From the NCBI GenBank assembly GCA_031372065.1, contig JANMKN010000142.1:1-16433 (forward strand): 16,433 bases of DNA, written 5' to 3'. The position numbers and the translations under genes were made by a program. The notes under the pieces were generated by a model, which saw nothing but the letters and a program-made list of their open reading frames with translations, was not told where the DNA came from and ran no database searches. Positions 3,786 to 16,425 of this stretch are shown here, piece by piece. Source of the DNA: Abditibacteriaceae bacterium. GTDB taxonomy: Bacteria > Armatimonadota > Abditibacteriia > Abditibacteriales > Abditibacteriaceae. The number at the start of each line of letters is the position of its first letter. The first letter of the stretch is position 1.

Positions 3786-4769
3786 TTATTTTTTCTCGAA
3801 TTGCAGCGCCGCTGAATTCATGCAGTAACGCAAACCGGTGGGTTGTGGGCCATCGTCGAAAACATGACCTAAGTGTCCGCCACAGCGCGGACATTCGACT
3901 TCGGTGCGCGTCATACCATCCGAATTGTCCACTTTTTCCACCACACTGGTTTTGGTCAGCGGCGCATAAAAACTGGGCCAACCAGTGCCCGATTCAAATT
4001 TTGTTTTTGAGGGAAATAATTCTTGACCGCAACCGGCACAGCGATAAATCCCGCTTTCGTGATTGGTGAGCAATGCGCCCGTGCCTGCCGCTTCGGTGCC
4101 TTCGTGACGCAAGACGTTATACGCCATCGGCGACAGTAATTTTTTCCATTCGGCATCGGTTTTGACGACTTTGCCGTTTTTATTGGCAGGCAAAACGGCT
4201 GGGCGCGGCGCAGTTTCGTTGACTAAATCGGCGATGAGTTCCGTCATTTTCTTGTCGCCGCCTTGCAACTCGCCAACCCACTGATAGCGAATCTTGCCTT
4301 GCTTATCAATCAGGTAAACCGTCGGCCAGTATTGCTGATTCCAACGCTGCCAGTTTTTGTTCTCGCCATCAATCAAAACCGGATACGCGATATTGTTTTT
4401 CTTGATGAACGCCGCCACGTTTTTCGGGTCGCGTTCTTGTGCCAATTCGGGGGTGTGCACGCCAATGAGTTCGACGCCTTGCCGATTGAAACGCTGATAC
4501 CAACTGGCATAGGCGGGCAAATTGGCCTGACAATTGGAACAGGCGAATGTCCAAAATTCGACAATAGTGACTTTGCCTTTGCGCGATTCCAGCGTGATAG
4601 GTTTGTTGCCTTGGGTGTTGAGCCACGAGGTGCCGACCAACTCCGGCGCCGTCTTATCCATTTTTATCGGATTGGCCGAGGCTTCTGGTTTATGCCGCCA
4701 AAACGCGCCGCCCAAAAGTAGCGCGCCCAACGCGCCCGCTGTTGTCAATGTTTTCAAAGTGTTTTTCAT
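3786..4769 (-). CDS. msrB: Exported fusion: TlpA/DipZ-like thioredoxin domain + methionine-R-sulfoxide reductase MsrB
   Basis: Signal-peptide-like N-terminus; EFWTFACSNC, GVHTPE, YWPTVYLIDKQG (redoxin); C-terminal SelR domain with CAGC/CPRC Zn motifs, KFESGTGWPSF, GHLGHVFDDGP, RYCMNS. Confidence 0.92.
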   Translation of the reverse strand: MKNTLKTLTTAGALGALLLGGAFWRHKPEASANPIKMDKTAPELVGTSWLNTQGNKPITLESRKGKVTIVEFWTFACSNCQANLPAYASWYQRFNRQGVELIGVHTPELAQERDPKNVAAFIKKNNIAYPVLIDGENKNWQRWNQQYWPTVYLIDKQGKIRYQWVGELQGGDKKMTELIADLVNETAPRPAVLPANKNGKVVKTDAEWKKLLSPMAYNVLRHEGTEAAGTGALLTNHESGIYRCAGCGQELFPSKTKFESGTGWPSFYAPLTKTSVVEKVDNSDGMTRTEVECPRCGGHLGHVFDDGPQPTGLRYCMNSAALQFEKK

Positions 4770-4931
4770 GATTTTGTCTCCGTCTCATTTTCGATGGATA
4801 GCAGCGCTTTTTCAGGCGACTCATAATCCATCAACCATTCAAACACCTTGGAGGCCGAGTTTGTTCCTGCTCCCAAGCAAATTGCCTATTGCAGCGCTTT
4901 ATATAGCCGCCCCATAGGAATCCGACGCTTC

Positions 4932-7595
4932 TTAAAACGGCAATTGTGTTTTGAGCAGAAGCGCCAATGCGGGGCCGACGATTTTGAGAATGCCCTGAAA
5001 AGCTGTGCCGATTTTCTCGTAGGACTCGAAGCCTTTGGCGGCACCTTCCAGCATGGCAAGCGCGCCGCCCGCTTTTTCCTTCGATTCTTCCGCATCTGGC
5101 TCGCTGACGGCTTCTTCCAATTGTTTCACGTTTCCTGCGGCGGCGTCGCAGACATATTTGTTTGCGCCCGCCGCGCGTGCCTGCTCAATCAAAGCGCGTA
5201 GCTTTTCGATTTCCGCTTTCAACTCTGCCGGATTGTCGGCGAGTTTCTGAATGGAAACTTGGTTGTTGTTGCCGATAACGTTGCCGTCACCGTTAATTGT
5301 GATGCCGCCCGTTGTAACCGGGCCGCTGGCGTCGCCGCCGATGTGAATGCCGTCGCTCATTTTATCTCCTTGAATTAAATCCCCTGCAACATAAATTCCG
5401 GCTTGTTGTTGTTCGCGCTCTTTGCGGGCTTCGCTGCGGACGGAGCCAAGTGCGTCGCTCACCAGCACAGGAATGATTTCGCCGGGTTTGGAGCCTTCAG
5501 CAGGAAGAATGTCGAATTTTCCTTCCCACTCCAAATTCCGCAGATGGCTGTAGCGCAGTAGCGGCGCGTTGGGATGCCCCGGCACCGGAATGAATTCTTC
5601 AACTGGCAAGTCTTTAAACTGGCCGTGAATGTCGTCGAAGGTGAGGCGCACTTTGTCGAGTGCCTCGCGCTGCTTTGCGGCAGGGCCGCTGACGTTGATT
5701 TCGACTTCCTTCTTTTCCCCGTCGGCGCGCACGAGGGCGCGGCAGCCGTTGATTTCCAGCACGCAGCCGTGGCGCCACGGGCCGGGAGTTTGGCTTTGCT
5801 CCTGATGGCGCCGCACGATGAAGCGCGGCAACAGGCCGGACGGCAGCACTTCGTAGCGATACAGAAAGCGAATCGTGCCCGTCTCCGGCCAAGCGAGAGG
5901 CGGCTCTTTTTCGTCCAGCAGGCGCGGCACCAACATGGTGCGCGGGCTGTGGTCGGGCGCGTCGTAGAGCAATTCAAACTGCCGCATCATGTCTTCGATG
6001 AACTGTGGCGAACGGTCGCGGTAATCGGCGGCGCCCAGCGTGTCGGACAATTGGCGGCGTGTCATCAAACCATTACGTTGGCGCAGGGCTTCGTCGTCCA
6101 ACACTGCGTAGACGCCTTTGGTGACCCATTCTGGGTTAAGAATGCCTTGGTCGCTCATAGCCACGCCTTCCTTGTCGCAGAAATAAAGGACGGTGCCCAG
6201 TTTGTGCCACAGGTCGAGCAGCAGTTCTTGATTCTTCTCGTCGCTTTCGCCGTGACGCGTGCATAACTCGCGGTAGGCGTGCAGCGGCAGCGTTTCCGCC
6301 GTCATGCGCTCCAATTCGTCTTTGATTTTCAGCCACGAAACCGGCATCTCGCGGCGCACTTCGCTCATGGCGCCGATGCGCGACAAGATGGCTTCTTTGA
6401 GCGTGTCCAAGCCCTCTCCAGTCCAACAACTGGCGCGGATGAACTGCAAATCATGGCCGTATTTGCGCTTGAGCAGATTTTCGTCGGGGCCGTCGCCGTG
6501 CTGGTCACACTTGTTGACGACGACTAAAACCGGAGCGTCGCCGCCGAAAGAACGAGCCATTTGCAGCCAGTATTCGACGTTATTTTGTCCATCATTGGCC
6601 CGTGCATCCACTACGACAATATAAACGGCGCGCTGCGTGAGAAAGAAGGTGTGTGTGGCGTGGTAAACCTCCTGACCGCCGAAGTCCCACAGGTTGAGAC
6701 GCAATTCGCCCTCATTTTCGCCTTGCGGCCACCACTTTTCGCGCACAATGCCGCGCGTTTTGTCGAAATGGCGCTCTACCGGTCCCGCTTGGAGCGCAGC
6801 TATAAGCGAGCTTTTGCCCACCTCAGCCTCACCTACAAACAGCACTTTAGCTTCATTCAAGGTGCGAACACCACCTGTCCGCCGTTGAGCAAAAAAATAG
6901 CGCAAAATCGCGCGTGGGTCGGCAGCGACTTCAAAAATCTGGACTTTGCTAATCCTCGGCCCCAAGATTTCCGGCGGGATGCCGAGCGAGTCGTTGCTAT
7001 GGAGATAAAGCTCTCTCAGGCGAGCGGCTTCGGCCAACGCCAGCAAACTCTCCGGCAGCGTGCTGAGTTTGTTGTTTCTGGCGTCAAGTTTCCTCAACTG
7101 CGCGAGTTGTCCGATGCTTTCTGGCAGCGTAGTGAGTAAGTTAGAAAAAATAATTAGCTCGCGTAACTGTCCCAATTTTCCCAACGATTCCGGCAACGCA
7201 TTGAGCTGATTGTGAAAGATGGAAATTTGCTCTAATTGACCCATTTGGTCTATACAGTCTGGAAGTTCGCTGATTCGGTTATTATATGCAACAAGGATTC
7301 TTAATCGGGACAATTCGCAGATCGAATCTGGCAAGGCGCTGATGTGGTTGTCAGAAATATCCAACTCTTGCAATTCTTGCAAATTGCTCAGTGAACTTGA
7401 TAATTCGCCCAGTCCGTTGTGAGATAGGTTTAGCTTCTTAATATGACTCAATTGCCAGAGACTTTTCGGAATCTCAGGCAAATCTAAATAGGAAAGATCA
7501 AGTTCTTCGGAGTTTACGCCGCGAACTGTCTCTATACGGCGTTCAGCCTCTGCCAAACGCATTTCGTAACGATTTTTATTGCTTTGGAAAGGCAT
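4932..7595 (-). CDS. Roco-family protein: LRR - Roc GTPase - COR - G/N-rich motif - C-terminal helical domain
   Basis: About 7 LRRs (LxxLxxLxLxxNxLxxLP), P-loop GEAEVGKSS, WDFGGQEVYHATHTFF, NKCD, COR motifs (SWLKIK..L, LHKLG-like WHKLG, ILNPEWVT.GVY, YEVLPSGLLPRFIVR). Confidence 0.92.
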   Translation of the reverse strand: MPFQSNKNRYEMRLAEAERRIETVRGVNSEELDLSYLDLPEIPKSLWQLSHIKKLNLSHNGLGELSSSLSNLQELQELDISDNHISALPDSICELSRLRILVAYNNRISELPDCIDQMGQLEQISIFHNQLNALPESLGKLGQLRELIIFSNLLTTLPESIGQLAQLRKLDARNNKLSTLPESLLALAEAARLRELYLHSNDSLGIPPEILGPRISKVQIFEVAADPRAILRYFFAQRRTGGVRTLNEAKVLFVGEAEVGKSSLIAALQAGPVERHFDKTRGIVREKWWPQGENEGELRLNLWDFGGQEVYHATHTFFLTQRAVYIVVVDARANDGQNNVEYWLQMARSFGGDAPVLVVVNKCDQHGDGPDENLLKRKYGHDLQFIRASCWTGEGLDTLKEAILSRIGAMSEVRREMPVSWLKIKDELERMTAETLPLHAYRELCTRHGESDEKNQELLLDLWHKLGTVLYFCDKEGVAMSDQGILNPEWVTKGVYAVLDDEALRQRNGLMTRRQLSDTLGAADYRDRSPQFIEDMMRQFELLYDAPDHSPRTMLVPRLLDEKEPPLAWPETGTIRFLYRYEVLPSGLLPRFIVRRHQEQSQTPGPWRHGCVLEINGCRALVRADGEKKEVEINVSGPAAKQREALDKVRLTFDDIHGQFKDLPVEEFIPVPGHPNAPLLRYSHLRNLEWEGKFDILPAEGSKPGEIIPVLVSDALGSVRSEARKEREQQQAGIYVAGDLIQGDKMSDGIHIGGDASGPVTTGGITINGDGNVIGNNNQVSIQKLADNPAELKAEIEKLRALIEQARAAGANKYVCDAAAGNVKQLEEAVSEPDAEESKEKAGGALAMLEGAAKGFESYEKIGTAFQGILKIVGPALALLLKTQLPF

Positions 7596-7640
7596 ATCAA
7601 CAAGTATAAATCAGAACACCTTGCCCAAAAGGTTCTGACG

Positions 7641-7896
7641 TGCGTTCTCGCAGTCATTTTCTGCGCCGTCGCACCTTTTTTCTGAGTTGCCACAGTTATT
7701 TTCTGCGTTGTCGCAGCTTTTTACTGCGTTCTCGCAGTTATTTTCTGCGTCGGCGCAGCTTTTTACTGCGTTCTCGCAGTTATTTTCTCCAATGCCGCAG
7801 AAAAAAGGTGCGGCGGCGCAGTTATTTTCCGCGTGGTCGCAGATATTTTCTCCGACCTCGCAGTTATTTTCTGCGACGACGCACCTTTTTTCTGCG
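7641..7896. repeat. Tandem array of 12 x 21-bp degenerate hairpin repeats (consensus TGCG-N4-CGCAGTTATTTTC)
   Basis: Units start at 7641, 7662, 7683, 7704, 7725, 7746, 7767, 7788, 7809, 7830, 7851, 7872; CGCAG-N7-CTGCG can form a 5-bp stem in the consensus units. Confidence 0.92.
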
Positions 7897-7907
7897 AGCG
7901 AGCGGTT

Positions 7908-8372
7908 TTAGGCCGGGTTGGGCGGCGTATTGGCGCCGCCGGCATTCTGTTCAAAGCGCGCTTTCAATTCGCGTTGCTCGGTTTCCATGCCGTCGGCGTG
8001 CTGCACTTGACGGTATACCAAGAGCGCGGCGGTCATCACTTCGCTGCCGATTTGGGTGAGCGTGTCGTCCAACAATTCATGCAGACGGGCCACAGCGGTC
8101 AGGATGGGCATCAAGTCGAAAAACAACTCCAAATCGCGCTCCATCGTGGCGACATCGAAACTGCGGGGCAAAATGTCCTCGTTTTGCTTGGCGATTTCCA
8201 GCGCCTTTTGCACAAAAGCGCGGCTGCCATCGCCCAATTTGGGCAGGGCGCGGCGTTGATGAGTGGTCAAGTCAATCAAAAACGGCACTTTGTCTTTTAT
8301 CAGGGCGACGGCAGCTAAAGCGGCCTGCACATCGGCAGCCGTGACGGTGGCATCAATACGGTTTTGCAACAT
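7908..8372 (-). CDS. Hypothetical all-helical protein (154 aa)
   Basis: Strong RBS (AAGGAG-5nt-ATG); motifs PFLIDLT..RR.LPK.G and LPRSFD....RD resemble, from memory, a widespread uncharacterised family; function unknown. Confidence 0.8.
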   Translation of the reverse strand: MLQNRIDATVTAADVQAALAAVALIKDKVPFLIDLTTHQRRALPKLGDGSRAFVQKALEIAKQNEDILPRSFDVATMERDLELFFDLMPILTAVARLHELLDDTLTQIGSEVMTAALLVYRQVQHADGMETEQRELKARFEQNAGGANTPPNPA

Positions 8373-8840
8373 CTAAACTCCTTCTATGGCGCCAATTTAT
8401 GGCTCCGGGTCGGCGGGCGCGGGTTATACCGCTCCTATTCCGCATCCCGCAAATTCTACAGCACATTTAAAAACAGATGATTTTGGGGTAAATGTATTGA
8501 AACAAGCTCCTTTTACAGTAGATTTGAAAACGCCCATAGAGGCGGAATCAGCAACGTTAAAATAGGGCAAGGCCAGCAATTACGATAAAACGGCCTCTGG
8601 TTCAGGCTTCAAAAAACGTCCCGCGATGAATTAATTTTAACATCGCAGATGCATTTGTAAATATAACGCCTCTGCTTCAATTTGAGATTTGAATTGAGAT
8701 TCACTGTTTAGCAAAAGCAGGCGGCCTCCACTGGAATTTTTTCTGCGTTGCGACTACACTGCCCCGCTTAGTAGGCCCGTTGTTTTGGCCGTTTTTCAAC
8801 TTCATCAATCCATTCGATTTATCGAAACTCAGGAGACATT

Positions 8841-10298
8841 ATGCCAGAAGCAAATTGCGACATTGGTCTGATCGGTTTAGCCGTCATGGGTCAGAATCTC
8901 GTTCTCAACATGAACGATCACGGTTACAAAGTGGCCGTTTACAATCGCACCACATCCAAAGTGGACGATTTTCTCGCCGACGAAGCCAAAGGAACCGAAG
9001 TTGTCGGTTGCCACACCGAAGAAGAATTAGTCGCCGCTCTCAAAAGCCCGCGCCGCATCATGCTGATGGTCAAAGCGGGCGATACGGTGGACAAAGTCAT
9101 TGACCAAATCGCGCCGCTCATGGAAGCGGGCGACATTATCATTGACGGCGGCAACTCGCTGTTCACCGATTCCAATCGCCGCACCAAAGACTTGGCCGCC
9201 AAAGGCATTTTGTTCGTTGGCACCGGCGTTTCCGGCGGCGAAGAAGGGGCGCGAAACGGCCCTTCGATTATGCCGGGCGGCAATCCCGAAGCGTGGCCTC
9301 ACGTCAAGGAAATTTTCCAATCCATCGCTGCCAAAGTGGACGACGGCACGCCGTGTTGCGATTGGGTCGGCGAAGACGGCGCCGGTCACTACGTCAAAAT
9401 GGTGCATAACGGCATCGAATACGGCGATATGCAGCTTATCTGCGAAGCCTATCAACTGATGAAGGACGGCCTTGGCCTTAACGCCGACGAACTGCACCAA
9501 GTTTTTGCCGAATGGAATCAGGGCGAACTCGACAGTTACCTCATCGAAATCACGCGCGACATCTTTGCGAAAAAGGATGAAGACGGCGCGCCGATGGTGG
9601 ACAAAATCCTCGACACCGCCGGACAAAAAGGCACCGGCAAGTGGACGGGCATCAGTTCGCTCGAACTCGGCGTGCCTGTCACCTTGATTGGCGAAGCGGT
9701 TTATGCGCGCTGCGTTTCGGCGATGAAAGAAGAGCGCGTCGCGGCCTCCCAAGTTTTGAGCGGCCCAAAAGCGGAGATTTCCGGCGACAAAAAAGCGATC
9801 ATCGAAGAAGTGCGCAAGGCGCTTTACTGCTCGAAGATGATTTCCTACGCGCAAGGCTATATGCTGCTGCGCGAAGCCGCCAAAGAAAACAAGTGGAATC
9901 TAAATTTCGGTGGTATCGCTTTGATGTGGCGCGGCGGCTGCATTATTCGCAGCGCCTTTTTGGGCAAGATTAAAGATGCCTTTGACAAGAATCCCGACCT
10001 CAATAACCTGCTGATGGACGACTTTTTCAGCGGCGCATTGAACGAATATCAGGATGCGTGGCGCCGCGCCGTCATCAAAGCCATCGAATGCGGCGTGCCG
10101 ACCCCGGCGTTTTCGACGGCGTTGGCATTTTACGACGGCTATCGCACCGGGCGCCTGCCTGCCAACTTGCTGCAAGCGCAGCGCGATTATTTTGGCGCGC
10201 ACACTTACGAGCGCGTGGACAAACCGCGCGGCGAATTTTTTCACACCGACTGGACAGGCCACGGCGGGCGCGTCTCTTCCAGCACTTACAACGTTTAG
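8841..10298 (+). CDS. gnd: 6-phosphogluconate dehydrogenase, decarboxylating (NADP-dependent)
   Basis: IGLIGLAVMGQNL, IIDGGNS, GVSGGEEGA, GHYVKMVHNGIEYGDMQ, QAQRDYFGAHTY; RBS AGGAG upstream. Confidence 0.98.
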   Translation: MPEANCDIGLIGLAVMGQNLVLNMNDHGYKVAVYNRTTSKVDDFLADEAKGTEVVGCHTEEELVAALKSPRRIMLMVKAGDTVDKVIDQIAPLMEAGDIIIDGGNSLFTDSNRRTKDLAAKGILFVGTGVSGGEEGARNGPSIMPGGNPEAWPHVKEIFQSIAAKVDDGTPCCDWVGEDGAGHYVKMVHNGIEYGDMQLICEAYQLMKDGLGLNADELHQVFAEWNQGELDSYLIEITRDIFAKKDEDGAPMVDKILDTAGQKGTGKWTGISSLELGVPVTLIGEAVYARCVSAMKEERVAASQVLSGPKAEISGDKKAIIEEVRKALYCSKMISYAQGYMLLREAAKENKWNLNFGGIALMWRGGCIIRSAFLGKIKDAFDKNPDLNNLLMDDFFSGALNEYQDAWRRAVIKAIECGVPTPAFSTALAFYDGYRTGRLPANLLQAQRDYFGAHTYERVDKPRGEFFHTDWTGHGGRVSSSTYNV

Positions 10299-10537: not shown

Positions 10538-10586
10538 AAATAAAACGCCGCGCGATTGAAAATCAATCGCGCGGCGTTTTATTTTT
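10538..10586. terminator. Bidirectional intrinsic terminator
   Basis: Perfect 22-bp inverted repeat aaataaaacgccgcgcgattga / tcaatcgcgcggcgttttattt with A/T tails. Confidence 0.85.
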
Positions 10587-13637: not shown

Positions 13638-15137
13638 ATGCATTTTCAATGGAATTGGCGCCTGATTTTGGTGACCTTGTTTTTACCCATTTTGGGTTTC
13701 ATCGGCACCGCAAGCGCCCAACGGTCGTTGCCCACGGACACCGTCAACATCGCCGCCGCTTCGCGCGGCGGGCGCATTGTCAATCAGCCGACGGTGCTGG
13801 ACGACCAAAAAGAATACGGCTCGCAAAATTTAATTGACGAGAAAATCTACAGCGCCGATGGCAAAGGTTCTTTTGGTTGGGTTAGTAACCACTATGATCC
13901 GATCAATATGGAAGAAGTCGTTGTTGGCTTCGCTGGCAATGAATCAAAGCGCATTGGGCGCATCGTATTAAATCCCGCCACTTATGTCGCGCGCGAGCGT
14001 TGGGCGAAAGATATTTCGTTGGAGGTTTCCGATAATATCAATGGCCCATGGCAGAACATCGCCGAAATCACCCTCAAACAAGTTCCCGAATGGCAGGAAT
14101 TCAAATTTTTGCCCGTAGATGCGCGTTTTGTCAAATTGCGTTTTCGCACCAATTATGGCTCTGACCGCGCCATTGCGCTGGGCGAAGTGCAAATATTCGA
14201 ATCCATTAACACCGAAAAAGGCATCGGCGGCACGATAGGCCGTTTGGAATCTGCTATTGCTGAACTGGACAAATGGCGCAAGAATCAACTGGAACTGGGA
14301 GTCGGCGCTGCGGTGCAACGCGTCAGCACTCCCAATGCGCCGTCCTCCAACGTCAATATCGCGGCAAAATCGAACGGCGGCAAAATCGTGGCGGTTTCCT
14401 CGGTTTTTGAAAGCGAACGAGGCAAAGGCCCCGACCTCACTTACAACGCCGATAAATTGATTGACGAGCGCGTGTGGCAAAAGGAAGACAAACCCAGCAA
14501 CGGCTGGTCAAGCGAAGGCTTTGTGCCCGGCCAACAGTGGGTCATTCTCGGCTTCAAAGATGATAGAGCGCAGCCTATCGGCAAAATTGTGTTCAGCCTG
14601 ATGTGCTATCAGCCGCGTGATCGCTGGGCACGGCGCGTCGAAGTTCAGGTCAGCAATAAAGCCTACAAAAATGAGGACGATTTAAAATCGTTTCGCACCA
14701 TTCAAACCATTAATTTAGCTTCCGTCACCAGCAATCAGATTTTCGATTTGCCGCCCACCGAAGCCCAATATGTGCGCTTGGTTTTCACCGCCAATGGCCC
14801 CGGCGGTGTAGACATTCCCGGCATTGACCCCGATGTCAATTCTGACCGCGCTGTCGCTTTGGGCGAAGTGGAAATTTATCCGCCAAAAGCGACCAATAGC
14901 GATTTGGATAGCATCATCACGCGCTTTAAAAACATTTCGTCCGATCTCAAGCGCCTGAGCCGCACCAATCCAGAGTTGGCCGCCTTAGAGATTCCTGAAA
15001 TAAACGCGGCCACCGAAAATGCCTTGTTAGACACGCCGGATAAAGATAATCCTCCCAAGGCGCCGCAAGTGACGCCGGCTCAATCGGCAGCGAACACCCG
15101 CATCAAAACCGCCCGAACTCCGATTCGACGACCATAA
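13638..15137 (+). CDS. Secreted protein with two discoidin / F5/8 type C-like (galactose-binding-like) domains
   Basis: Signal peptide ending ASA; duplicated domain NIAA.S.GG.IV ... ARFVKL/AQYVRL ... SDRA.ALGEV.I; RBS AGGAG. Confidence 0.7.
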   Translation: MHFQWNWRLILVTLFLPILGFIGTASAQRSLPTDTVNIAAASRGGRIVNQPTVLDDQKEYGSQNLIDEKIYSADGKGSFGWVSNHYDPINMEEVVVGFAGNESKRIGRIVLNPATYVARERWAKDISLEVSDNINGPWQNIAEITLKQVPEWQEFKFLPVDARFVKLRFRTNYGSDRAIALGEVQIFESINTEKGIGGTIGRLESAIAELDKWRKNQLELGVGAAVQRVSTPNAPSSNVNIAAKSNGGKIVAVSSVFESERGKGPDLTYNADKLIDERVWQKEDKPSNGWSSEGFVPGQQWVILGFKDDRAQPIGKIVFSLMCYQPRDRWARRVEVQVSNKAYKNEDDLKSFRTIQTINLASVTSNQIFDLPPTEAQYVRLVFTANGPGGVDIPGIDPDVNSDRAVALGEVEIYPPKATNSDLDSIITRFKNISSDLKRLSRTNPELAALEIPEINAATENALLDTPDKDNPPKAPQVTPAQSAANTRIKTARTPIRRP

Positions 15138-15144
15138 ACTAATT

Positions 15145-16290
15145 GAGGCCTGGACATAAATAGCCAAACGTAAAAAGGACTGCGTGCAACATTGCGCTGC
15201 ACGCAGTGAGCCTTCTAAGATTGTGGATACCACTCTACAATCAGGAGGCTTACTTTGAGCATACCGCAAGAACGTCTTACCGTCTCGTTAGTTGAATTGG
15301 TGGAGGAATTACCCTATTTTACGCTGGCTGTTGAGGCCCAACAAACTGGCCCACGCCGCCGAGGGCGTCCCAAGGTTTATCACGACAACCTGTTTTACAA
15401 AGCGTTGGTTATCATGGTGGTGCGTCGCCTGACCAGCGCGCATGAATTCTTACAGGTTTTGGAAGAACCCACTTTCGAAATGATGACTTTACGCAACCTT
15501 TTGACTTGCCGGGGCCGTTTTCCCTGCCGCCGCACTTGGGAACGCCGTTTCGCGTCCATGCCCGCCACCTTAGCCGATCAAATTGGGATGTTAGGACGCT
15601 ATCTGGTGGAACAGCTTGATCCTTTTGCCGCTTCGGGACGCGCGGCGGCGGTGGACTCAACACTTTTGCGCGCCTTTGGCGGTTATGTGTGGCATAAAAA
15701 AGATCGGCAGGCCGGTGTGGTGCCTCACCGGGGGATTGACGTGCAAGCGGGTTGGACTAAATCCGGGCATCATGGCTGGGTTTATGGCTGGAAATTGCAT
15801 TTGGCGGCGACCTGTGGTGAGGTTTGGATTCCTTTAGCAGCTCAACTAACGCCTGCCAACCAAGCGGATAATGAAGTCGCGCCCGCATTGCAGGAGCAAC
15901 TGCCTCTTTCGGTGCGTTTTCTATTGGGCGACACCCACTACAACACCTCTGATATTCGGGAAAACTGTGCCTTGCGAGGTCAGACTTTGGTGGCCTTTGG
16001 GCATGGGCGTTATCCTCACCCCGACGATAGCAACAACTCCAAAGAAGTGCGAAGACTCTTCCATAAACTGCGTTCTGTGACCATTGAAAACTTCAATCAA
16101 CAGTTCAAATCCCTCTTCGATGCCCATCGCCCTGTGCCGACCAAAGGACTCCTCAGAACCCAGAATTGGGCTTTAGGTGCGATTTTGACCTATCAACTGT
16201 TACTCTGGCACCGTTGGAAACAAAACTTGCCCTTGAGAGTGGGATTGAAATACGCGCTCAAAGCCGCTTGATGATTTATGTCCAGGCCTC
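15145..16290 (+). mobile_element. Insertion sequence, 1146 bp, DDE transposase (IS4/IS5/IS982-like; family not resolved)
   Basis: Perfect 17-bp terminal IRs GAGGCCTGGACATAAAT (15145-15161) / ATTTATGTCCAGGCCTC (16274-16290); 8-bp direct repeat AACTAATT at 15137-15144 and 16291-16298. Confidence 0.93.
15255..16271 (+). CDS. DDE transposase (DDE_Tnp_1-like)
   Basis: RRGRP N-terminus, AVDST, YGWKLHL, LLGDTHY, RSVTIENFN (D-D-E); AGGAGG RBS with TTG start; enclosed by IRs. Confidence 0.9.
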   Translation: MSIPQERLTVSLVELVEELPYFTLAVEAQQTGPRRRGRPKVYHDNLFYKALVIMVVRRLTSAHEFLQVLEEPTFEMMTLRNLLTCRGRFPCRRTWERRFASMPATLADQIGMLGRYLVEQLDPFAASGRAAAVDSTLLRAFGGYVWHKKDRQAGVVPHRGIDVQAGWTKSGHHGWVYGWKLHLAATCGEVWIPLAAQLTPANQADNEVAPALQEQLPLSVRFLLGDTHYNTSDIRENCALRGQTLVAFGHGRYPHPDDSNNSKEVRRLFHKLRSVTIENFNQQFKSLFDAHRPVPTKGLLRTQNWALGAILTYQLLLWHRWKQNLPLRVGLKYALKAA

Positions 16291-16293
16291 AAC

Positions 16294-16425
16294 TAATTAG
16301 TCGGACAGAATAGATTATGCCAAGGGAGAAGCATAAGCGACGGGCTTAACCGGCTCGGAGAAAATCCCGTCGCTTATGCTCTGGATTCTCAGGGATAGGC
16401 GAATTTAATTGTGTCCGACTAATTA
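16294..16425. mobile_element. MITE/REP-like 132-bp non-coding element with terminal and internal inverted repeats
   Basis: taattagtcggaca (16294-16307) / tgtccgactaatta (16412-16425); inner agcataagcgacggg (16330-16344) / cccgtcgcttatgct (16366-16380). Confidence 0.6.

Follow-up and report, generated by a model that had tools for sequence, protein, structure and literature searches.

Gene order in the window

The stretch of DNA analysed here, referred to as the window, is a 16,433-nt contig (JANMKN010000142.1) from an Abditibacteriaceae bacterium. The focus of this work is a small gene within it, p154, which encodes a 154-amino-acid (aa) protein and is followed by a tandem array of 21-bp units and then by a gene for a Roco protein, which carries leucine-rich repeats (LRRs), a Roc domain and a COR domain. 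An earlier note on this DNA proposed that these three co-oriented parts form one operon or, alternatively, that the small gene and the array are a cassette of their own that inserts next to defence genes. All three parts are confirmed, by open reading frames (ORFs), Tandem Repeats Finder (TRF) and Pfam, respectively. The features of the locus are as follows.

8841-10298, plus strand: gnd, divergent from p154.
7611..8700, minus strand: approximate extent of the likely inserted cassette (promoter, p154, array and hairpin), from comparison of leaders with those of the congener G002.
8423..8452, minus strand: candidate p154 promoter (TTGCGG, 18 nt, TATAAC), suggested by reading the sequence and not called by a consensus scan.
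8378..8383, minus strand: p154 ribosome-binding site AAGGAG, from the sequence.
7908..8372, minus strand: p154, an ORF for an all-helical protein of an unnamed family, with no family match, an AlphaFold2 (AF2) model and a predicted intertwined homodimer.
7641..7896, minus strand: array of 12.2 tandem, dyad-bearing 21-bp units, from TRF and folds, with copies on contigs C232, C88 and C265 of the same genome.
7611..7638, minus strand: imperfect hairpin 3' of the array (−11.1 kcal/mol, z −1.35), a possible cassette terminator and right end.
7603..7608, minus strand: TATACT −10 hexamer, a candidate leaderless Roco promoter 7 nt 5' of the ATG, with the same hexamer and spacing in genomes G001 and G002.
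4932..7595, minus strand: LRR-Roc-COR gene (Roco, or AP-GTPase), 887 aa, with an unnamed C-terminal region; a neighbour outside the cassette, identified by Pfam and with relatives that lack p154.
4769-3786, minus strand: msrB-type gene.

The array, which can alternatively be scored as 6.1 copies of 42 bp, begins 11 nt past the p154 stop codon and stops 45 nt short of the Roco ATG. The block is flanked by msrB and gnd, as the earlier note had it, with the correction that gnd is divergent. The same note saw no obvious terminator between the parts. Indeed, a terminator scan called none, but the gap between the array and the Roco gene does hold the weak hairpin at 7638-7611, with a few T residues after it and a fold that is not significant. 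This hairpin is missing from the Roco leaders of two congeners. Resemblance to the gnd leader of G002 ends at ~8700 and the shared Roco leader restarts at 7610; these positions give the approximate limits of the cassette. Contigs from run X1 match positions 4700-7788 without differences, leave most of p154 uncovered and prove nothing about the cassette.

The conserved unit of gene and array

What is conserved at this locus? Scans of genomes and metagenomes with the single p154 protein found nothing; alignment-based searches found homologues, and the p154 profile matches 3777 representatives at 50% identity. Arrays were called where a 21-, 42- or 63-bp period occurs within 600 nt of the gene, counting loci with enough flanking sequence. 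The scan of homologues for downstream arrays of ~21 bp, a check proposed in the earlier note, was positive at 72 of 78 GTDB loci, with an array upstream at 1 of 76 and at a control distance at 2 of 74. These loci are the best 80 of 347, mostly from Cyanobacteria and also from Acidobacteria, Anaerolineales and Abditibacteriaceae, and the best lag is 21, 42 or 63 in 78 of the 80. Similar results were obtained for the best 80 of 189 metagenome loci, many of them short (44/56 downstream, 0/68 upstream, 0/43 at the control distance). Across the p154 family, the median gap between the stop codon and the start of the array is at most about 80 nt. Two complete cyanobacterial genomes have an array beside all eight of their full-length p154 copies. 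The periodicity is weaker (0.46-0.64) at nine copies from elsewhere in the window's phylum. In the genome that holds the window (G000; 6.1 Mb, 94% complete), the array score is at least 0.55 for five of the seven p154 paralogues and 0.54 for a sixth, as compared with 222 of 4169 ORFs at or above that threshold. The conserved unit is the gene plus the array, and a dedicated three-part module that also includes the Roco gene is not supported. The two-part cassette is real and widespread, and no description of it was found in the largely open-access literature searched.

The array units look non-coding. There is neither third-position bias nor an excess of open frames in 68 linked arrays, and the possibility that the array is a gene for heptad peptides was rejected for want of codon-phase bias. 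Distances between repeats are exact multiples of 21 in 85% of cases, one base shorter in 8.7% and one base longer in 1.2%, as would be expected of a DNA helix with about 10.4 bp per turn and not of codons. A 7-bp sub-period is detectable in p154-linked arrays (0.33 vs. 0.25) and is not genome-wide (0.235), so 7 bp was rejected as the basic period and 21 bp is primary. Array sequence tracks protein sequence: pairs of loci with 90-99% protein identity match at 18.8 of 21 consensus positions, while pairs with 50-59% identity match at 10.8, close to the null value of 9.4. The period is constant throughout. The units are also rich in dyads: at least 14 self-complementary positions are found in 57 of the 112 consensus units from linked arrays and in 47 of the 179 from the genome as a whole (null, 7%). 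In the window array, unit 5 is inverted and units 1-5 make a long fold-back.

The p154 protein has no family in Pfam, NCBIfam, PADLOC, PHROGs or the PDB, and 127 members of its family give only single weak matches in family libraries. The AF2 model is confident (predicted local distance difference test score, pLDDT, 95.5) and all-helical, with helices at residues 12-28, 37-42, 48-63, 74-125 and 130-148, the central one being 52 residues long. When two copies are modelled together, an intertwined dimer is obtained with a score of 0.84, as compared with 0.00 for the best control, 93% agreement of contacts between runs and a pLDDT of 88. The mark used to call dimers is passed by 20 of 30 solved pairs and by 1 of 23 single chains, and p154 is predicted to be a homodimer. 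Fold searches gave no PDB or BFVD match with an E-value up to 0.001, which is not evidence of a new fold. The best natural matches in a PDB profile search, occludin and a WXG100-like protein (E 0.06-0.14), were not accepted. No homologue was found in viral contigs, and there is one partial match among 72,556 plasmids. DUF6261 (PF19775) was rejected as a family assignment, there being no Pfam match to it for p154, for its 127-member alignment or for 20 representatives of the other helical families described below. The nearest named Atlas cluster of one protein from these, of family C, is DUF6261 (0.86, 32% of members), which is a lead only; no homology between p154 and family C was detected.

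The window array is one of 301 of its kind in G000, and so is not unusual there. These arrays, each at least 80 bp long with a period near 21, 42, 63 or 84, fall into about 146 sequence families and total 55 kb. By contrast with the 15 and 21 arrays expected, none was found in congener samples of 312 kb and 438 kb. The p154 gene is found in 6 of 301 genomes of the phylum and in none of the three same-genus genomes searched, two of which have Roco genes. The seven G000 paralogues, whose tblastn-aligned parts have 28-41% identity to the window copy, sit between unrelated genes, and every array has its own sequence. The same genome has about a dozen more unnamed families, whose proteins are 120-330 aa long and look helical from their sequence; some of them carry a C-terminal FN3/Ig domain. 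Together with p154 they make up a helical set of 71 genes, 50 with the array upstream, 8 with it downstream, 7 with none and 6 with too short a flank; an array lies beside about 12% of genes outside the set. For example, non-p154 families such as those at L234-L253 have a 21-bp array directly upstream, and their library matches are only weak ones to fn3/Ig and PQLLE_fam. One family has 17 matches in G000 and 0-3 in each of 30 relatives.

There is also evidence that the gene and the array likely move together between genomic sites. First, paralogous blocks of the other families, with 78-88% DNA identity, extend from the array through the gene end or the hairpin beyond it and lie at unrelated sites. 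Second, the window's array family includes the three gene-less copies on C232, C88 and C265, which have neither p154 nor a Roco gene. From the p154 stop codon onward, the orphan on C232 and the window array are collinear, inverted fifth unit included, and the end of a G002 sulfatase gene that matches the C232 site has no array. Third, orphan arrays occur in the two cyanobacterial genomes (two and four). A separate observation is that a Y1 transposase gene, similar to the tyrosine transposases associated with repetitive extragenic palindromic (REP) sequences (RAYTs), lies directly 3' of an array and helical-gene cassette in two genomes (G000:C106:20279-21566 and L282); none of the seven Y1 matches in G000 is on the window contig.

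The Roco gene as a neighbour

The 887-aa protein has the features of a Roco protein, i.e., N-terminal LRRs and a Roc domain followed by COR. All of its Pfam matches are above cut-off: LRR, Roc (residues 250-364, 3.7e-26), COR-A (418-560, 2.4e-32) and COR-B (574-699, 1.5e-22). Proteins with an LRR-AP-GTPase-COR-effector layout are predicted counter-invader proteins (PMC8195603, main text passages). Shared with that class are the N-terminal LRRs, Roc, COR, a variable C-terminal region and the presence of several paralogues per genome. There are two differences: those passages, which do not include the source data for Figure 6, name no upstream helical gene or array, and the C-terminal region here matches no Pfam family.

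The suggestion that p154, the array and the Roco gene form one operon is not supported by comparison with other genomes. A Roco gene as fixed partner was rejected, with no tblastn match in the best 80 of 347 GTDB loci (4 kb flanks), in the best 80 of 189 metagenome loci or in nine loci of the phylum (1.5 kb flanks), and there is no LRR match near any of these p154 loci. Conversely, relatives of the Roco protein without p154 occur in 4 of 30 related genomes. In G002, a contig carries gnd and a divergent Roco gene with the same gnd leader, and has neither p154 nor an array; in G001, the order cdaR-cdaA-alr-gnd is found without an insertion. A TATACT-N7-ATG Roco leader is common to the window, G001 (a relative that is 64-71% identical) and G002. 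Among 2568 genes of G000, −10 hexamers peak at 6-7 nt before the ATG (45 and 33 genes), with about 10 at most other distances. These sequences suggest that the Roco gene has its own leaderless promoter. Because TATACT lies 7 nt before the Roco ATG, co-transcription of the array and the Roco gene cannot be assumed. Hence, the arrangement in the window is likely one in which a cassette landed in front of an independent Roco gene of an immune type.

Several other features of these Roco genes were observed. Inside the window gene (5372-4932, minus strand), a GGAG site precedes an ATG at 5360, a possible separate start for the last 143 residues. The stretch around this ATG is rich in short G/I/N repeats, which may resemble amyloid signalling motifs. 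The last 106 residues are 65% identical to the G002 Roco protein, as compared with only 30-45% for Roc-COR. A second Roco gene of G000 (1084 aa; L226, G000:C334:13513-17567) has a co-oriented gene of a helical family directly upstream, without an array. Finally, two congeners (L107:1900-2700 and L098:1-190) have REP-like palindromes upstream of Roco where the cassette sits; such palindromes are widespread in G000.

A possible mechanism and its alternatives

What might the cassette do? We tentatively favour, at close to an even chance, the explanation that p154 and its 21-bp array are a self-contained and likely mobile cassette whose predicted homodimer likely binds the dyads of its own array, with the Roco gene as a neighbour predicted to be independently promoted. 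This agrees with the cassette alternative of the earlier note, in the array linkage (72/78 and 44/56 loci) and in the genes for STAND (NLR-like) or restriction-modification proteins often found downstream. Specifically, the p154 dimer would bind dyad sites spaced by two DNA turns, such that the array is held as double-stranded DNA on one face of the helix and becomes a phased nucleoprotein platform. The idea that p154 binds the array comes from the predicted dimer and from units that are rich in dyads and look non-coding: a two-fold protein, two-fold sites and a two-turn spacing would fit successive dimers on one DNA face. The platform may serve the cassette's own control or its spread. Movement would depend on host recombination functions, because the cassette encodes no recombinase. 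Arrays could then outlive their genes as orphans, and cassettes could gather at intergenic hot spots shared with conflict genes.

A number of observations count against this explanation. First, p154 is not basic, with a net charge of −6 (family median −2) and K/R-rich sequence in the tail only, and no DNA-binding fold could be recognised in it (best VIA Z 6.0 and 5.2). Second, the counts flatter the linkage. The linked loci are related to one another, so their number overstates their independence, and the 71-gene set was found partly via arrays, which inflates its array fraction. Third, a gene-linked member is present in 44 of the 146 array families of G000, no more than the approximately 43 expected from random placement, so the data do not point to a source gene behind every orphan family. 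Fourth, signs of transposition are scarce. No catalytic residue set stands out in p154. Neither terminal repeats nor target duplications were seen by eye in six paralogous pairs, although the copies are 12-22% diverged and their ends may have eroded; there is no RVT_1 (reverse transcriptase) match in G000 (94% complete), for which reason retro-mobility was rejected; and Y1 transposases are not clearly expanded (seven in G000, 3-6 in four relatives). Fifth, open frames in arrays genome-wide exceed those of column-permuted controls (308 vs. 232 and 300 vs. 240 in 258 arrays), and antisense stops are less frequent than in controls in the linked ones (491 vs. 788). Lastly, the G002 contig with gnd and Roco is an imperfect control, being short and frameshifted, with a second gnd copy.

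Known systems offer partial analogies: the cassette resembles REP-RAYT in the way it is distributed in the genome, whereas its anatomy is that of a centromere or iteron pair. In REP-RAYT systems, a gene is flanked by its own repeat family, with several pairs per genome, scattered gene-less copies in intergenic regions and patchy, lineage-specific expansion. The cassette is similar in each of these respects, including the gene-less dispersed copies of a gene-linked repeat (three orphans of the window array, and the two and four in the two cyanobacteria). REP/REPIN elements with a RAYT transposase are the subject of PMC3116915. Unlike a RAYT, p154 is not an HUH/Y1 transposase, having no Y1_Tnp match in Pfam and an all-helical structure, and its repeats form tandem arrays of 8-12 units that keep to a 21-bp grid and lie to one side of the gene; copies per family are few, and the families number about 146. 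Repeats are also paired with dimeric binders in plasmid centromeres and iterons, as in sopC/SopB, parC/ParR, and the R6K and P1 iterons with Rep. There too, phased tandem dyad sites with whole-turn spacing and pair-specific sequence lie beside the gene of a dimer, in our case a predicted one. Unlike these pairs, the cassette has no ParA/ParM/Rep partner and is chromosomal, with many copies. In addition, p154 has no sequence match to ParB, ribbon-helix-helix (RHH) or Rep proteins and no clear match, to a winged helix or otherwise, in fold searches, and no partition NTPase is among its downstream neighbours. A further parallel is BrickBuilt of Porphyromonas gingivalis, a minisatellite and MITE (a miniature transposable element with inverted repeats) with a 23-nt unit, a single family, a leader and tail, and terminal inverted repeats (PMC4596501). 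Like the arrays described here, BrickBuilt consists of tandem units of about 20 bp in intergenic DNA and has been dispersed en bloc to many loci; the abstract of that paper reports no linked protein family, in contrast to the many 21-bp families with linked genes and no terminal repeats seen here.

The alternative that survives best, though it is unlikely, is that a host factor, such as a nucleoid protein or a regulator, uses the array as a phased platform from which it controls the adjacent gene; the helical protein would then have another job, e.g., a structural or polymer-forming one, and would not read the array. This would explain why about a dozen families without detectable shared sequence, some with C-terminal FN3/Ig domains, have one common period, why the array is mostly upstream in the wider set (50 upstream and 8 downstream of 71 genes) and why p154 is acidic. 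However, a single host reader would favour one sequence, and G000 alone contains about 146 array families. Moreover, p154 loci have the array downstream, and the array sequence tracks the protein sequence, which co-inheritance alone could also produce.

A more doubtful alternative is that the cassette is the functional head of NLR-like conflict loci, with p154 acting on the STAND or Roco protein encoded downstream as its adaptor or regulator. In the neighbour tabulation proposed in the earlier note, which had looked to Roco and restriction-modification genes, Roco is absent, a co-oriented STAND NTPase gene is downstream in 32 of 80 GTDB loci, upstream in one and on the other strand in none (9 vs. 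1 in metagenome loci), and restriction-modification and Uma2 genes are downstream in several more (67 downstream proteins scanned). About eight STAND architectures are represented: AAA16-TPR, several NB-ARC-TPR, TIR-NB-ARC, NACHT-pentapeptide, nSTAND1-WD40 and others. Upstream neighbours (56 of 71 scanned) are mostly housekeeping, with one STAND-TPR protein. In G000, an array adjoins 7 of 11 TIR/STAND/Roco genes, as compared with 423 of 4134 genes, and 3 of 6 without the TIR set. Against a dedicated partnership, both counts are biased by the choice of seeds, those for STAND being proteins encoded downstream and that for TIR coming from a gene next to an array, and many Nostocales loci are orthologous. 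No STAND gene is beside any of the 13 loci that carry the names Acidobacteria, Anaerolineales or Abditibacteriaceae, and one is beside a single copy of the eight p154 genes in the two complete cyanobacterial genomes. In those genomes, 18 of 19 NB-ARC loci have no array, and arrays as general marks of NB-ARC genes were rejected (1/19). One of the seven G000 paralogues precedes a conflict NTPase. The STAND pattern is explained more simply by shared insertion hot spots and hitch-hiking in one clade. One STAND-TPR protein (L367, Chlorogloeopsis fritschii PCC 6912, next to L064) starts with a degenerate version of p154 residues 4-71 that has acidic residues at conserved basic positions, and an intact p154 cassette lies 3' of its gene; such a fusion would fit an adaptor role, but a word search, crowded and weak, found no longer fused forms. 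A gene-less 21-bp array, from a different family each time, comes after each of four TIR-domain genes (L233, L232, and on G000 contigs C10 and C197); three large genes that look restriction-modification-like from their sequence are followed by such arrays too.

The earlier note also drew an analogy to ToxIN. In such a pair, the array would be transcribed in the 3' untranslated region, would fold and would bind or neutralise p154. This reading has the poorest prospects of the alternatives that make the array functional. Type III toxin-antitoxin systems (ToxIN, CptIN, TenpIN) have an upstream array of 34-57-nt units, then a terminator and then an endoribonuclease. The resemblance lies in a protein gene next to a structured tandem array of pair-specific sequence, in the short distance from the stop codon to the array and in strong folding of the array region relative to shuffled sequences (z −9.9). 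However, the opposite strand folds equally well (z −9.3), as dyads would, and the analogy fails on array position (downstream in 72/78, upstream in 1/76), on period (21 bp) and on protein family. The all-helical p154 has no match to a ToxN/CptN/TenpN-type endoribonuclease in Pfam, NCBIfam or PADLOC, nor to any toxin family or fold, and the array region has no Rfam match, antitoxins included, except for two below-threshold microRNA models. In addition, the array lies before the gene in the upstream-array families, and one orphan is antisense to its flanking genes. Lastly, a neutral nature of the arrays, as minisatellites that have expanded in certain lineages and lie beside these genes by chance, is highly improbable: about 250 of 301 G000 arrays have no helical-set gene beside them, but a one-sided linkage that spans several phyla and unrelated sequences with one period largely refutes this.

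What are the implications of the cassette explanation? First, a large family (3777 clusters) is linked to an array that looks non-coding and holds to one period as its sequence changes, and neither part is named in the libraries or literature searched. The Roco gene, by comparison, is of an already known kind. Second, the pattern is common to about a dozen unrelated families and reaches about 1% of the chromosome in one lineage, with none in congener samples. Third, natural controls are available, and seven protein-array pairs from one genome could be used to test cognate binding. If binding is pair-specific, the family would supply many mutually orthogonal pairs of protein and DNA (or RNA), as well as a new route by which immune genes are moved. 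A bolder proposal, which we consider unlikely as a whole, is a new class of selfish element without a transposase, integrase or reverse transcriptase. Here, a dozen unrelated helical families would coat their own two-turn-phased arrays, spread as cassettes and be able to bloom to about 70 genes and 300 arrays in one lineage; genes of the NLR-like, TIR, Roco and restriction types would be drawn to the arrays as landing sites and reshuffled there.

Three further repeats or mobile elements lie elsewhere in the window. A perfect heptamer array, (TCGGTGG) x 10, is found at 1393-1462, at the start of a cdaR-like gene, and G001 has a different heptamer array in the same place. A perfect 22-bp inverted repeat lies 3' of gnd (10538-10584). 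An insertion sequence (IS) element with 34-nt inverted ends occupies 15137-16298 and encodes a DDE_Tnp_1 transposase (15255-16271).

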